DNA of 64,000 nucleotides from a virus (taxonomy: Duplodnaviria > Caudoviricetes), in IMG/VR virus record IMGVR_UViG_3300027804_002812, positions 32,001-96,000 of that record; one strand, given 5' to 3'. Position 1 is the first letter of the stretch. The number at the start of each line of letters is the position of its first letter. A program made the translations under genes and the position numbers. The notes beneath the pieces are model-generated. The model did not search any database, was not told where the DNA came from, and saw only the letters and a list, made by a program, of their open reading frames with translations. Below, one piece after another: positions 49,351 to 55,957 of the stretch.

Positions 49351-49512
49351 TTATTTTTCAGAATTATCATGTCCACATTTATGACACATGTAAGGGTCTT
49401 TACCACCTTCAGATAATTTCCAAGACCAACCACATTCATCACAAATAACTTTCTCTTTGGTGACCTTTTCAATGATTCGAGTCAGCTGAGTTTCCCTAAC
49501 AATAATTTTCAT
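49351..49512 (-). CDS. Small Zn-ribbon protein (CxxC...CxxC); absent from the ORF track
   Basis: 53 aa MKIIVRETQLTRIIEKVTKEKVICDECGWSWKLSEGGKDPYMCHKCGHDNSEK; TAATG coupling with the upstream gene. Confidence 0.7.
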   Translation of the reverse strand: MKIIVRETQLTRIIEKVTKEKVICDECGWSWKLSEGGKDPYMCHKCGHDNSEK

Positions 49513-50102: not shown

Positions 50103-51854
50103 ATGAATGTAAGTCTAGAATCGAAAGCATTAGCACTATTGGAATCTTATGAAGGTGGAAATAACTATTTGCTTGAACTCAAACGAAAGTCTCAAATAAA
50201 TAAAAAATTCTATCCAACAAGAAGCCAATCTGAGTATATTATCAATAACCATAACAACCAACCAAAGGTTGCAAAGAAGTGGGTTATACTAGACGCATAC
50301 TTTGCAAAAAAGTTAGCGGATGACAAATTATATACCATAATACCTGATAGAGTATGGGTTGAAAAACTATTGTGTGATACAGAAAAAGCATTTCACATTT
50401 GGGGTAAGGTGTTCGAAACTGAAGAATTCCACGATTTTTGGTTACCAAAAGCAGCAATTATAAAAGACAATTCAGTTAAAGATGTTGTTATAGATTATGA
50501 AAAATATTCTCATAGACCTCCACTCCAACATCAAAAAGAATCAATCCAAAAACTTGTTGAAAATAAAAAATTCATATTAGCTGACGATATGGGTTTGGGA
50601 AAAACCACTTCAACAATCATCGCAGCTTTAGAAACAGGAGCAAAGAAGATTCTTATCATTTGTCCTGCAACTCTGAAGATTAATTGGAAACGAGAAATAG
50701 AAAATTACTCGGACAGATCGATATTCATATCTGAAGGAAAAACTTTTAGTACCGAACACGATTTTGTAATCATAAACTACGACATTATTAAAAACTTTCA
50801 TGACACTAAGAAAAAAGATGAATCGCAAGTTATTGCTGCCAATTTTGATTTGGTGGTCGTTGACGAAGCACACTATATCAAGAATCCTACGGCCCAAAGA
50901 ACAAAACTAATCAACGACATCGCAAAAAATGTTGATAGACTATGGTTATTGACAGGTACCCCGATGACATCAAGGCCAATGGACTATTTCAACTTGTTAC
51001 ATCTTATTGAATCACCTGTCGCCCGTAACTGGATGGCATATGCTATCAGATATTGCAGCGGATATCAATTTAATGTTGGAGGACGTAAAGTTTGGAACGT
51101 GACAGGGTCATCTAATTTGGAAGAACTACGGGACAGAACCACAGGTCTTGTCTTACGAAGACTCAAAGAAAACGTATTGGACTTACCTGAAAAAATAATC
51201 ACCCCTGTTTATTTGAGATTGAAGTCAAAGGCATACGAAGAAGTGATGGGAGAGTATTATGATTGGTACGATAAAAATCCCGAAGAATCAAAATCACTCA
51301 CGGTTCAATTTACTAAACTCACGAAAGTACGACAAATCATTGCCGATGAAAAAATAAGTCAAACGATTGAGATCGCTGAGAACATTATTGAACAAGACAA
51401 GAAAGTGATTATTTTTTGTAACTTCACTGACTCCTTAAATAAAATTTGTCAACATTTTGGAAAAACTGCAGTCAAAGTGGATGGGTCTATGGCTCAACAT
51501 GAACGTCAATTTAGTGTTGACCAATTCCAAGAAAATGATAAAGTAAAAGTATTTGTAGGTAACATTAAAGCTTCAGGAACAGGAATTACATTAACTTCTG
51601 GGGAGGTTGTAATTTTCAATGATTTATCATTTTTGCCGTCAGATATGGCACAAGCTGAAGATAGGGCATATCGTTATGGCCAAAAAAATAACGTGTTAGT
51701 TTATTATCCAATATTTGATAACAGTATTGAAGCAATTATTTACGACATCGTTAATGCAAAGAAAAAAGTAATTGCAACAGTAATGGGTGATGATAAAAAT
51801 ACTGCAGACGCTGCTGAAGAAATTATGAATAAAATTCACCAATTAAGGAAATAA
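50103..51854 (+). CDS. SNF2-family ATPase/helicase (SMARCAL1/HARP-like)
   Basis: ILADDMGLGKT, VVDEAH, LLTGTP, GITLT and QAEDRAYRYGQ motifs. Confidence 0.92.
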   Translation: MNVSLESKALALLESYEGGNNYLLELKRKSQINKKFYPTRSQSEYIINNHNNQPKVAKKWVILDAYFAKKLADDKLYTIIPDRVWVEKLLCDTEKAFHIWGKVFETEEFHDFWLPKAAIIKDNSVKDVVIDYEKYSHRPPLQHQKESIQKLVENKKFILADDMGLGKTTSTIIAALETGAKKILIICPATLKINWKREIENYSDRSIFISEGKTFSTEHDFVIINYDIIKNFHDTKKKDESQVIAANFDLVVVDEAHYIKNPTAQRTKLINDIAKNVDRLWLLTGTPMTSRPMDYFNLLHLIESPVARNWMAYAIRYCSGYQFNVGGRKVWNVTGSSNLEELRDRTTGLVLRRLKENVLDLPEKIITPVYLRLKSKAYEEVMGEYYDWYDKNPEESKSLTVQFTKLTKVRQIIADEKISQTIEIAENIIEQDKKVIIFCNFTDSLNKICQHFGKTAVKVDGSMAQHERQFSVDQFQENDKVKVFVGNIKASGTGITLTSGEVVIFNDLSFLPSDMAQAEDRAYRYGQKNNVLVYYPIFDNSIEAIIYDIVNAKKKVIATVMGDDKNTADAAEEIMNKIHQLRK

Positions 51855-51892: not shown

Positions 51893-52048
51893 ATGGGAAG
51901 ACCGTCCAAAAAAGAAGAAGATAAAAAAATTAAAATCGGTATTAGTTTAGATAGACAACTTTATAATAAAATTATGAAAGATGGTGGTAAGGTTTCTCGT
52001 ATAATTGAAAAAATAATTAAGGAGTATTGTGGAGACAAAAATTTGTAG
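51893..52048 (+). CDS. Small RHH-like DNA-binding protein with N-terminal GRP (AT-hook-like) motif; absent from the ORF track
   Basis: 51 aa MGRPSKKEEDKKIKIGISLDRQLYNKIMKDGGKVSRIIEKIIKEYCGDKNL; TATTTATT lies 3 nt upstream; overlaps the HNH start by 20 nt. Confidence 0.65.
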   Translation: MGRPSKKEEDKKIKIGISLDRQLYNKIMKDGGKVSRIIEKIIKEYCGDKNL

Positions 52049-52691
52049 TAAGTGTAAGATTAAAAAAGATATTTGTGAATTCAATAAACGAATTACATCT
52101 AAAGACGGAAAGCGAAGTTCTTGTAAAGAATGTGATAATGAAGATATTAAAAAATGGAGACAGAACAACAAAGAGAAATTAAAGTTACAAAGACAGAAAT
52201 ATACCAAAAAACACCATCAAAAAAATTTAGATAGAGGTAAAAAATATAGAGAAAATAACAAAGAAAAACATTTAACTCGTAATAGTAATTGGAGGAAAGA
52301 AAATAAAGAATATTTCATAAAATACTATCAAGAAAACAAAACTAAAATTTCCAAACAATATTCTGAAAGAAAAAAAACAAATATCTTATTCAAGTTATCT
52401 TCATTGTATCGAAGTAAAATAAATAAAGTTTTAGGGTCAAAAAAAAATAACACGACTTTTGAGATTATTGGATGTTCACCTGAAATATTGAAAGACCATC
52501 TTGAAAAACAATTTACTAAAGACATGTCTTGGGATAATCATGGTCTTTTTGGGTGGCATATCGACCATATAGTACCACTATCCTCGGCAAAAACAGAAGA
52601 AGAAGTTTATAAATTATGTCATTATACTAATCTTCAACCATTATGGGCAAAAGATAATTTGAAAAAATCTAACAAGTTGGATTATTTATAG
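52029..52691 (+). CDS. Free-standing HNH homing endonuclease
   Basis: N-terminal CSKC...CKEC zinc motif, Lys-rich linker, and C-terminal WHIDHIVPLS...HYTNLQPLWAKDNLKKSN. Confidence 0.88.
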   Translation: METKICSKCKIKKDICEFNKRITSKDGKRSSCKECDNEDIKKWRQNNKEKLKLQRQKYTKKHHQKNLDRGKKYRENNKEKHLTRNSNWRKENKEYFIKYYQENKTKISKQYSERKKTNILFKLSSLYRSKINKVLGSKKNNTTFEIIGCSPEILKDHLEKQFTKDMSWDNHGLFGWHIDHIVPLSSAKTEEEVYKLCHYTNLQPLWAKDNLKKSNKLDYL

Positions 52692-52707: not shown

Positions 52708-54246
52708 ATGACTAAAGTACAAGAAAAGATTCAACAACTCGAGTTACAAATTGTAGAACAAAAAGTAACACGAGAAAAAGAGTTGTTAATCACAGAAATG
52801 AAAAAAATTGGAATAGAAAAACTACCTTATTCCTACTCAGCTCTAAAGCAATTTATTGACCCTGAAACAATGGATTTCCATTATAACAAACATTACAAGG
52901 GGTATGTTGATAAATTAAACGACGCTCTATCCAAGAAAAAATATGGAGATTTGGAGTTAGAACAAATAATCAAAACAATAAGTCGATTTGACAAAACAAT
53001 TAGAAATAATGCAGGTGGAGCATTTAACCATGCATTGTTTTGGAACATGTTAACACCTGAACCCAAAAGACTCAAAGGGGATTTACAGAAAAAAATTATC
53101 AAGGAGTTCGGTAGTTTTATTTTATTCAAGAAAAAATTCGAAGAGATTGCCAAAGAAAGATTTGGTTCAGGATGGGTTTGGTTAGTTTTGACAGGTAGAA
53201 ATAGTTTGAAAATCATGTCCACCCCAAATCAAGATAATCCTTTAATGAACATTATTGAAGGTGGAGGTTTTCCGTTATTAGGTTTGGATTTATGGGAACA
53301 TGCATACTATCTCAAATATAAAAACAAAAGAGATGAATATATTTCTAACTTTTGGAAAGTGGTGAATTGGGAATTTGTTTCCAAACTTTATGATATGAAA
53401 ACAGAAACAAAACTTTTGGAATCTGTTGAAATGAAAAAAATTATCAAAGAATTCAAAGAACCAAAATTTTGTGATTCAAATGAAATTACTTTTTATAAGG
53501 AATTAATCAACAACCCTAAGATAAAAAAATTATATCAAGATGGTGTTACTGATGTTTTGAAAAAAGTATTTCATGAATATTGGGTGGAGAGTAATGAGAA
53601 AGAAATGTCAGGATTTTATGGGATTGAATCCGACAGTGCTAGATCGGTTTTGAATAACTTGAATACCAACTTTAATACTTTTTGTTTATTGACAAAGGCA
53701 ATCAATAGACAAATAGAGTCAATTAACAAACCGAACAAAAAATTCGATTTTTCTATCAAAGAAAAACGAACAATTAGTGAGGTCAATAGACTTATATCAG
53801 CATTAGATTATTTCAAAAAAGAAATTTTTACAAAAAACAATGAAGATTTTGTTAACATAATCAGTGTTTTGTTAAAACTTTGGGATAGAGGACAAAAATC
53901 TGAAGACAAAGTTCTTTCTAAAATAGAACAATATTTCGGTAAAGATTCTTCAGTTGAAAAGATAGGTGGACACGGTCAAAAGAGTGACGCATTCAAAGGT
54001 ATTGATTTGATTGTTAATGTTGATGGTAAAAAATACACCGCTCAAGTAAAACCTTTTTCTTCTATAAAAAAAGAAGGAGACAAAATTACAGTCTTGAATA
54101 CAGGCAACGTTAAACCATATAACGTAGATTGGATGATATTTATAAACACTAAGTCTAATAAAATTCTAATTATCGAGAATAATCCAATTGAGAGTCGTGA
54201 CCAATATGTTTTCAATGCGTCATCTCTAATTCACGAAATAGATTAA
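52708..54246 (+). CDS. sodA: Fe/Mn superoxide dismutase (Mn-type signature) fused to a C-terminal PD-(D/E)XK-like domain
   Basis: HYNKHY, NNAGGAFNHALFW, FGSGWVWL, TPNQDNP and DLWEHAYY motifs, followed by about 270 extra aa containing KGIDLIV...AQVKP. Confidence 0.85.
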   Translation: MTKVQEKIQQLELQIVEQKVTREKELLITEMKKIGIEKLPYSYSALKQFIDPETMDFHYNKHYKGYVDKLNDALSKKKYGDLELEQIIKTISRFDKTIRNNAGGAFNHALFWNMLTPEPKRLKGDLQKKIIKEFGSFILFKKKFEEIAKERFGSGWVWLVLTGRNSLKIMSTPNQDNPLMNIIEGGGFPLLGLDLWEHAYYLKYKNKRDEYISNFWKVVNWEFVSKLYDMKTETKLLESVEMKKIIKEFKEPKFCDSNEITFYKELINNPKIKKLYQDGVTDVLKKVFHEYWVESNEKEMSGFYGIESDSARSVLNNLNTNFNTFCLLTKAINRQIESINKPNKKFDFSIKEKRTISEVNRLISALDYFKKEIFTKNNEDFVNIISVLLKLWDRGQKSEDKVLSKIEQYFGKDSSVEKIGGHGQKSDAFKGIDLIVNVDGKKYTAQVKPFSSIKKEGDKITVLNTGNVKPYNVDWMIFINTKSNKILIIENNPIESRDQYVFNASSLIHEID

Positions 54247-54264
54247 CAAAGATATTTATATTAT

Positions 54265-55392
54265 ATGTCAGCAATACCAGAACCAGAACGAAGTAGAATA
54301 TACACTAGAATTAAACACCAATTAGGTGCACCACTCAGAAGTGTTGAACTCGAAGACGAAATGTTGGATTCACTAATGGAATTAGCCATCGGGGATTATG
54401 AAGAATATATCCTTCAGTGGTTAATCGATTCACAGTGGGTTAATCTCGTAAACTTGAATATGAATGAAAGATCGGTTGCCAGAGCGTTGGTAACTCGAAC
54501 TATGGATTTTGAACAACAATTCAGCTATTCATATTCTAAAATTGTGGGTCTTCAAACTGAAGGTCCTTGGGTTCTAAAAAAAGATTATTTCATTTTAAGT
54601 GCTAATACACAAACTTATGAAATTCCTGCAGGACGAGAGGTCAATGAACTATTATGGTTTTCTAACCAAGCATGGACTGCATTTGGATTGGGAGGTCTTG
54701 GTGGATTTGGATTTGGTGGTATAGGATTAGGTGCCAATGAAGCGGGTTACGCTCAAATGGGTTATCAAGGGTCTTATTTCATGATGTCAGGTTTTGATTA
54801 CTTGATTAGAATGCAAGAGGCAAACATCCTTAATAGAATCTTAGGTGGTTCCTTGACATATAGAATTACAGGTCTTCCTGATGGTAAAAAACTTATTCAC
54901 TTGTATAATACTCCGGGGGGTAAATTCAACTGGTCAAATTATAACCTTTATGTTGGCAAAGCGGTATGGTATTGGTATTATGATGTTGAACCTGATAGTA
55001 GAGCAGATTGTTTGAAAAACAATCCTGATATTATCAAACTTCCTACTGACGTACCTATTGAAGAACTAACTTGGACAGACATAAATGTACCAGGTCAGCA
55101 GTGGGTAAGAAGATGGTTCACAGCATATTGTAAAGAAACTTTAGCAAGAGTAAGAGGAAAGTACAGTGGTAATCTGAAAACTCCTGACAGTGAAATTACT
55201 ATGGATTATCAAAGTTTGTTGACTGAAGCTAAAGATGAAAAAACTAAATTAGTTGAAGAATTAATTGGTGCCGAGGGTTGGTTGACAAGAATGAGACCTG
55301 ATAAGGTTATGGAGAGAGAAGCGTTAATTGCTGAGAATCTAAATAAACAAATGAAGTTTAGAGCAATGCCTCGACAAATATACGTAATTTAA
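54265..55392 (+). CDS. Neck / head-tail connector protein (gp13-like)
   Basis: IKHQLGAPLRSVELEDEMLD and WVRRWFTAYCKETLARVRGKY patterns; TATTTATA upstream. Confidence 0.7.
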   Translation: MSAIPEPERSRIYTRIKHQLGAPLRSVELEDEMLDSLMELAIGDYEEYILQWLIDSQWVNLVNLNMNERSVARALVTRTMDFEQQFSYSYSKIVGLQTEGPWVLKKDYFILSANTQTYEIPAGREVNELLWFSNQAWTAFGLGGLGGFGFGGIGLGANEAGYAQMGYQGSYFMMSGFDYLIRMQEANILNRILGGSLTYRITGLPDGKKLIHLYNTPGGKFNWSNYNLYVGKAVWYWYYDVEPDSRADCLKNNPDIIKLPTDVPIEELTWTDINVPGQQWVRRWFTAYCKETLARVRGKYSGNLKTPDSEITMDYQSLLTEAKDEKTKLVEELIGAEGWLTRMRPDKVMEREALIAENLNKQMKFRAMPRQIYVI

Positions 55393-55738: not shown

Positions 55739-55957
55739 CTATGAAAGTTTTTCAATAACATACTCGGCAACATAATCTTTACCGTCACTAATGCCCTTAC
55801 TGATTGTTTTCATTAACTTCTTTAATTCTTTAATTTTTACATTCAATTCAGAATAAGAAGGATGCTCATCAAGGAATTCGTATTTCTTATTTTCTTCAAT
55901 TATTCTATTAGCTAATATTGATAGCTCAGATTCTGTTATTCTAATTATCTTCCTCAT
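55739..55957 (-). CDS. Small protein with KIIRITESEL N-terminal motif
   Basis: 72 aa, directly after the polymerase stop codon. Confidence 0.6.
   Translation of the reverse strand: MRKIIRITESELSILANRIIEENKKYEFLDEHPSYSELNVKIKELKKLMKTISKGISDGKDYVAEYVIEKLS

Follow-up and report, generated by a model that had tools for sequence, protein, structure and literature searches.

A superoxide dismutase fused to a putative PD-(D/E)XK nuclease in giant T4-like lake phages: a modular slot with candidate prohead protease sites

The gene described here (52708-54246, plus strand) lies in a window of 64,000 nucleotides, which comprises bases 32001-96000 of a single-contig virus record of 326,291 bases. The source is a giant T4-like bS21 lake phage of 326 kb, whose genome encodes an S77 prohead protease of the T4 gp21 type (G000 140410-141126) and a gp23 capsid protein. 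Its bS21 gene (G000:C1:141697-141888, plus strand; L492) is situated among head genes of the opposite strand, an arrangement which it shares, like its genome size, with freshwater phages predicted to infect Bacteroidetes (10.1101/2021.10.11.463225; PMC9723584). Bacteroidota are probably also the host group of the source phage. The gene table of the same study lists the gene family simply as SOD, and superoxide dismutase (SOD), fusion and nuclease are all absent from its text (10.1101/2021.10.11.463225; PMC9723584). The gene is a single open frame of 512 aa without any internal stop and encodes, in this order, a 30-aa leader, a SOD domain (aa 31-229), a 21-aa linker, a helical domain and a PD-(D/E)XK core (Table 1).

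Table 1. Features at the SOD-nuclease locus (positions of the window; a slash marks a candidate cut).
Feature	Position	Strand	Remarks
SNF2 helicase gene	50103..51854	+	Constant left flank of the slot
Optional HNH/endonuclease VII-like gene	52029..52691	+	PHROG 1035, E 2e-23
TATTTAT before the fusion gene	52683..52689	+	In the last codons of the HNH gene
Leader, aa 1-30	52708..52797	+	Helical, ends I-T-E; candidate head-targeting propeptide
Fe/Mn SOD domain, aa 31-229	52798..53394	+	SodFM1-like; Pfam, ligands, Mn-type signature
Linker, aa 230-250	53395..53457	+	Two [IL]-x-E sites: L-L-E238/S and I-K-E248/F
Helical domain, aa ~251-390	53458..53877	+	Model and conservation in 96 distant homologs
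PD-(D/E)XK core, aa ~391-512	53878..54246	+	Fold searches; E399, D427, D433, Q446, K448
TATTTAT before the neck gene	54253..54259	+	3' boundary of the exchanged cassette
T4 gp13-like neck gene	54265..55392	+	Constant right flank; PHROG head-tail adaptor; PF26809 on orthologs

An initial annotation of this DNA had pointed out that the fusion directly follows an HNH gene. Both genes do adjoin here, but only three of 80 related loci have the HNH gene ahead of the fusion. It is an incidental and unrelated optional insertion outside the system, and a functional tie between the two was rejected. The segment 51882-52691 represents an optional cassette of a 51-aa ORF and the HNH gene, with a TATTTAT motif at either end; similar HNH genes occur at other nearby places in three relatives (L001, L011, L056). 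One of these, a 329-kb relative in which the nuclease gene at this place comes without SOD, has an SNF2 helicase with an intein (L001:3601-5961).

The fusion is genuine and not an assembly artefact. Fused proteins of 509-517 aa are encoded at more than 150 loci of related phages, and in all 80 IMG/VR loci in which the C-terminal domain was found it is fused to SOD and located between the SNF2 helicase gene and the gp13 neck gene. Contigs from two other studies cover 53032-54281 without a gap and cross the joint, one of them with no difference (X7) and the other with six (X13). Leader, linker and both halves are under purifying selection, with dN/dS values of ~0.04-0.05 in the SOD, 0.11-0.17 in the two C-terminal parts and 0.16-0.28 in leader and linker, all of them rough because dS is near saturation. 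Databases do hold chimeric predicted proteins with the C-terminal domain (P0115, P0152), but the number and uniform length of the fused loci, the independent contigs and the selection on all parts make an assembly error, of which the initial annotation had warned, or an accidental read-through exceedingly improbable. Several unusual fusions, one of them with TrkH, were left out of account because they probably come from chimeric contigs (P0115, P0151, P0152, P0183), and homologs of 283, 333, 343 and 399 aa, which start at an internal Met and mostly lie on short contigs, were rejected as separate forms; P0162 was confirmed to be a cut fusion. One 517-aa fusion (L094) is located on a contig binned into a Polynucleobacter MAG; as it groups with the phage SODs, this is probably a mis-binned phage contig. 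A search of INPHARED did not find the fusion in any cultured phage, the matches being to SOD only and many of them host contamination, and a literature search, with most subscription journals outside its coverage, found no paper describing a SOD-nuclease fusion.

The first half of the protein is an intact SOD, as annotated before, with the domain proper spanning aa 31-229 and not aa 30-235. Pfam recognises Sod_Fe_N (aa 37-115, E 1e-22) and Sod_Fe_C (aa 123-226, E 3e-39), both above cut-off, and among solved structures the closest is that of a bacterial SOD, with an alignment over aa 38-230. Among 93 full-length homologs the metal ligands H58, H108, D194 and H198 are invariant, as are the gateway residue H62, Q175, D176 and G192, while the second gateway residue, Y66, is conserved to 99% and the pair G103-G104 to 99-100%. 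A C-terminal Gln and a Gly at D-2 are strong, if not absolute, indicators of Mn preference in SodFM1 enzymes (PMC10172142). As the phage domain bears this usual Mn-preferring signature, with Q175 as the C-terminal water-coordinating Gln and G192 as the Gly at D-2, it likely prefers Mn. A score of 202 bits, compared to a cut-off of 363 for the NCBIfam sodA equivalog PRK10925, means that the domain is not filed as an ortholog of enterobacterial-type SodA. The nearest bacterial SODs belong mostly to Bacteroidota and are ~50-55% identical to the phage SOD; ligands, C-terminal Gln and Gly at D-2 are common to the phage SOD and the SodFM1 SODs of Bacteroidota (PMC10172142). Unlike these, the phage SODs form a phage-only clade on one side of a long, fully supported branch and are flanked by leader and linker, and their H-Y-N-K-H-Y and G-G-A-F-N-H variants are rare among the bacterial neighbours. 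By its sequence affinity, the SOD is the host-derived part of the fusion.

For the second half a PD-(D/E)XK nuclease had been proposed from a restriction-like D...(Q/E)xK motif. The motif is present at aa 420-449, with E399, D433, Q446 and K448 conserved, and the fold was recovered as well, but in the last ~120 aa only, the preceding ~140 aa forming a helical domain. In an AlphaFold model of aa 250-512 (pLDDT 84.6) this helical domain is followed by an alpha-beta core, of which aa ~395-512 match PD-(D/E)XK enzymes only, namely I-Ssp6803I, Hjc, NhoI and PvuII. Fold scores are modest (best Foldseek E 1.1e-3, best VIA Z 7.2) and agree on one fold, with the top matches in all three libraries being either of the PD-(D/E)XK fold or uncharacterised. 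The four enzymes share the core fold and the residue order E...D...QxK with the phage module, which differs from them by an identity of less than 20%, the extra 140-aa helical domain and an invariant D427. A profile search yielded 239 representatives of the nuclease family. In 96 distant homologs D427, D433 and K448 are present without exception, Q446 in 94 and E399 in 92, and the helical domain carries a conserved S-x-L-N-x-x-N-T-N motif. This residue pattern suggests a working PD-(D/E)XK site of the QxK type and, with it, nuclease activity; model and conservation indicate that the helical domain is probably the recognition part of the module. No named family was obtained above cut-off for aa 230-512 in Pfam, PHROG or NCBIfam, and no solved homolog of the nuclease module was found by sequence; the only PHROG match to the C-terminal domain was the unnamed phrog_5018 (E 1e-4), and the ESM Atlas led to viral clusters without a name and, weakly, to NOV_C. 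A single paralog in the genome (L256, G000:C1:227409-228641, minus strand) is 410 aa long and has a canonical leader, an upstream TATTTAT and an extra N-terminal part. Distant nuclease relatives (P0210, P0226, P0248, P0284, P0287, P0293) are fused behind other domains (esterase-like, DUF4314), several of them with [IL]-x-E at the joint.

To avoid bias, loci for a census of the SNF2-gp13 interval were retrieved by the neck gene (gp13) alone. Of the 240 slots obtained, 196 hold SOD plus nuclease, 18 the nuclease alone and 16 a SOD without the nuclease family; eight are empty, in one the fusion is frameshifted, and one has nothing but a different module. None of the empty slots is among the 80 nearest loci, which are all fused. 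Further forms are SOD-nuclease-nuclease (L469), SOD-nuclease-third module (L447) and SOD-third module (L488), and an HExxH module can stand ahead of the SOD with or without another C-terminal module (L410, L476). The gene is thus one occupant of a modular slot between SNF2 and gp13. The fused HExxH module was also seen in L411 and L485, there is no Pfam match on the fused copies (L410, L411, L476, L485), and a free-standing homolog with TATTTAT upstream lies at G000:C1:250375-251193 (minus strand). The third module (~380 aa) also occurs alone in the slot, with a leader, in L438 (2333-3478) and L472 (2328-3476); no profile similarity of the L438 type to the nuclease family was found, its D...EVK pattern being visible by eye only. 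For the module of L476 the Atlas gave sub-threshold leads to the SmaI and HinP1I families only. In L270 (287-1879) a leader-bearing protein of 530 aa, Ala/Gly-rich and partly hydrophobic, is inserted ahead of the SOD fusion.

The nuclease also varies by allele. Among 95 distinct fused proteins, 59 have the allele type of the source phage and 31 a second type. Three relatives (L176, L179, L183) are 95-98% identical to the source in the SOD and 97-100% in gp13, but only 38-39% in the C-terminal domain. DNA identity to them stops at ~53,442, just past the linker sequence L-L-E-S-V, and is found again from 54,252 on, where the motif ahead of gp13 lies; a contig from run X10 has the same allele joint, from 53439 to 54252. 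The nuclease allele is therefore exchanged among near-identical phages between the linker and the gp13 promoter, the exchanged piece corresponding almost exactly to the predicted mature nuclease, and the active-site residues are kept in both alleles. On the nuclease tree the fused forms require eight changes, whereas the SODs of these forms fall into a single group; a possible history is one gain of the SOD, followed by losses and module exchange.

These observations bear on the two readings offered by the initial annotation. One bifunctional enzyme that protects DNA is poorly supported, since the halves occur alone, several unrelated modules can take the C-terminal place, and the nuclease was swapped for a 38%-identical allele behind a SOD that stayed 95-98% identical. 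A SOD that captured a mobile nuclease comes closer in that the module is exchangeable, but the nuclease is of a phage family whose members also occur by themselves behind a leader of their own, and the host-derived part is the SOD. It has also to be considered that the nuclease might be a free-standing homing-type endonuclease that invaded the SNF2-gp13 interval and became fused to a useful late gene, its alleles displacing each other by homing. The best structural match is indeed the homing endonuclease I-Ssp6803I, endonuclease-free sites exist (the eight empty slots of 240), two broken copies were seen (L434, L486) and the allele replacement is sharp-ended. On the other hand, the Hjc and NhoI matches are equally good, and the active-site motif is intact in 162 of 163 distinct proteins, with a dN/dS of 0.12-0.17. 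All 80 nearest loci are occupied, so that homing targets would be scarce. Moreover, slot and linker are shared with tandem copies and with unrelated modules, and homing leaves the leaders and the cut-like sites described below unexplained. We consider this origin unlikely.

Leader, protease-like joints and a late-type promoter motif had escaped the initial annotation. I-T-E30 stands directly before the SOD's own Met31, with E30 invariant in 93 homologs, and in 123 of 131 distinct proteins [ILMVF]-x-E immediately precedes the first residue of the SOD. SOD-free forms such as P0150, P0154 and P0171 begin with a leader of this type; some others, such as P0124, have no clear leader. The third module, where alone (L438, L472), begins with a leader M-x-I-I-I-S-E, and every joint of the longer forms (SOD-nuclease-nuclease in L469, SOD-nuclease-third module in L447) bears the motif. 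At the first linker site 15 of 95 fusions have I-N-E, and at the second site of the source genome E248 is followed by Phe, unlike the usual S/G/A. The gp23 capsid protein of the source phage has L-I-N-E60/A at what we take to be the place of T4's maturation site. In T4, gp21 cleaves behind L/I-X-E, and internal proteins reach the head by way of short leaders that can be cut off (PMC9026906). When 26 linker families less than 50% identical to each other were compared with shuffled sequences, [IL]-x-E was found 53 times in the linkers (17.4 in the shuffles) and [IL]-x-E-[SAG] 31 times (2.3 in the shuffles), numbers to be read with the caveat that the motif has only three residues and was chosen after inspection of the data, and that the families are not fully independent as the linkers are homologous. 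The variants [IL]E, [IL]xxxE, [IL]xK and [IL]x[DQ] were at or under chance in the same families; [IL]xxE was also raised (27 against 16.8), because the linkers have a second hydrophobic residue. Scaffold and capsid propeptide are enriched in [IL]-x-E as well, in contrast to polB, terminase and folded domains. From these sequence patterns, the joints are candidate cut sites of the phage's own prohead protease. Across the genome ~60 ORFs have [IL][TSN]E in their first 36 aa, clustered at G000 228-237 kb, and leaders resembling M-K/R-x-I-I-x-x-T-E were seen in small ORFs at 49351-49512 and 55739-55957 (-).

In a model of the full-length protein aa 221-248 form one continuous helix that extends from the SOD (pLDDT 73-86), low confidence being restricted to aa 22-39. 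This helix could be a rigid spacer, which would speak against cutting. The protein might also be packaged by means of its leader and stay whole, as the bifunctional enzyme of the initial annotation, with SOD dimers pairing two nuclease domains or guarding metal site and DNA. It is in line with this that SodFM1 enzymes are homodimers (PMC10172142), that the fused form is by far the dominant one in the census, and that the fusion is old, C-terminal domains as little as 27-35% identical being found behind related SODs. Nevertheless, each half is also found alone, the SOD is fused to unrelated modules as well, and two copies of the linker motif, ten residues apart, are kept across divergent families, so that we regard an uncut protein as improbable.

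In 84 of 85 related loci a TATTTAT motif lies upstream of the fusion gene. It is found there even where the HNH gene has been inserted. Genome-wide it occurs in 85 upstream regions, with 6.9 expected, and precedes the scaffold, protease, portal and gp13 genes, but not SNF2 or the DNA polymerase gene (polB). The capsid gene has no TATTTAT within 45 bases, the motif is missing in six of 15 SOD-free forms, and its association with the leader motif across the genome is weak (p 0.014). It is a probable late promoter element, by which the fusion would be expressed late. An RNA run (X17) contained only short, scattered pieces of the locus. An additional TATTTAT inside the nuclease coding region (54137-54143) may be due to chance.

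Late expression would also suit a cytoplasmic protein whose nuclease processes or degrades DNA during packaging and whose SOD protects the cell, with [IL]-x-E belonging merely to a helical linker. A late-type promoter beside a neck gene, the Hjc-like fold and the helix modelled for the linker would agree with such a role, a head-completion DNase of restriction endonuclease fold is known from group 2 jumbo phages (PMC7824862), and phage genes for defence against reactive oxygen species (ROS) have been read as aiding the infected host (PMC6802176). A core packaging nuclease, however, should neither be missing, as the nuclease family is from 24 of the 240 loci, nor be replaced by an allele of 38% identity in phages that are otherwise almost the same, and the spacing-specific motif with its small P1' residue matches the capsid site. 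There is, in our view, little likelihood that the protein works in this way.

The closest known systems are the internal head proteins of T4, to which the fusion is likened by motif and genomic context. For IPI, IPII, IPIII and Alt of T4, as for the source phage, there are T4-like head genes and a protease of the gp21 family, and the T4 internal proteins likewise have L/I-x-E after a short leader and variable cargo behind a constant leader (PMC9026906). T4 cargo, however, consists of single proteins with 10-aa leaders or terminal propeptides (PMC9026906), whereas the source phage strings together several folded enzymes, including a metabolic enzyme of host origin, with internal sites. Polyvalent proteins also resemble the fusion, as they unite mixed enzyme domains in one chain, are encoded near late genes and were proposed to be packaged and processed (PMC5512222); some relatives of the fusion carry an N-terminal HExxH module (L410, L476, L485) that recalls them. 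The fusion protein has none of their hallmarks, be it MuF or a known MPTase domain, its predicted processing points to the prohead protease, unlike that of polyvalent proteins, and SOD is absent from the polyvalent-protein paper (PMC5512222). For a SOD delivered by a particle, the literature search found precedent in eukaryotic viruses only. The Cu,Zn-SOD of the chlorovirus PBCV-1 is, as proposed here, an active viral SOD carried in the particle, but it is of an unrelated fold, from a eukaryotic virus and unfused (PMC10583209).

Taken together, the sequence evidence is most consistent with a late, head-packaged polyprotein that is cut into an antioxidant and a variable nuclease, a reading to which we assign a probability of roughly 60%. 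The protein would be synthesised late from the gene's own TATTTAT promoter and drawn into the prohead by its leader. The gp21-type prohead protease would then cut after E30 and E238, perhaps also after E248, and free a Mn-SOD of normal size that starts at its own Met31 as well as a PD-(D/E)XK nuclease of ~265 aa. The SOD may dispose of superoxide, either inside the particle or in the cell just infected, and the nuclease may act on DNA of the host or of competing phages after ejection. An attack on host or rival DNA would explain the allele exchange, which would take place by recombination, with the conserved linker and the gp13 promoter as its limits, as in an arms race. Foreign DNA as target after ejection is the weakest step of this mechanism, and we put it at slightly below even odds. 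Besides the helix that could be a rigid spacer, it speaks against cargo that a nuclease packed beside the genome has to be kept in check. Internal proteins also differ among T4 relatives while their leaders are similar, EcoRI is among the engineered T4 fusions (PMC9026906), and freshwater phages often carry genes for ROS defence (PMC6802176). In its widest and more doubtful form, which we offer tentatively, the locus might be a mix-and-match cargo cassette, in which a constant, host-derived Mn-SOD serves as carrier and interchangeable nucleases of restriction fold are chained behind it, loaded, freed by the protease and injected, so as to act from the first minute of infection.

[quoted passage not shown] The allele exchange singles out a nuclease family, as yet unnamed, that is under diversifying pressure, and the two alleles on one phage backbone, the targets of which are probably different, offer a direct test. 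Leader and linker could furthermore be tried out as tags to direct several proteins into one capsid. The T4 model would be extended by a prohead protease whose task goes beyond the trimming of leaders to the separation of folded enzymes in a chain. Phage SODs are usually read as being made in the infected host for its protection; with a SOD brought in as protein by the head, an auxiliary metabolic gene would be put to a different use.
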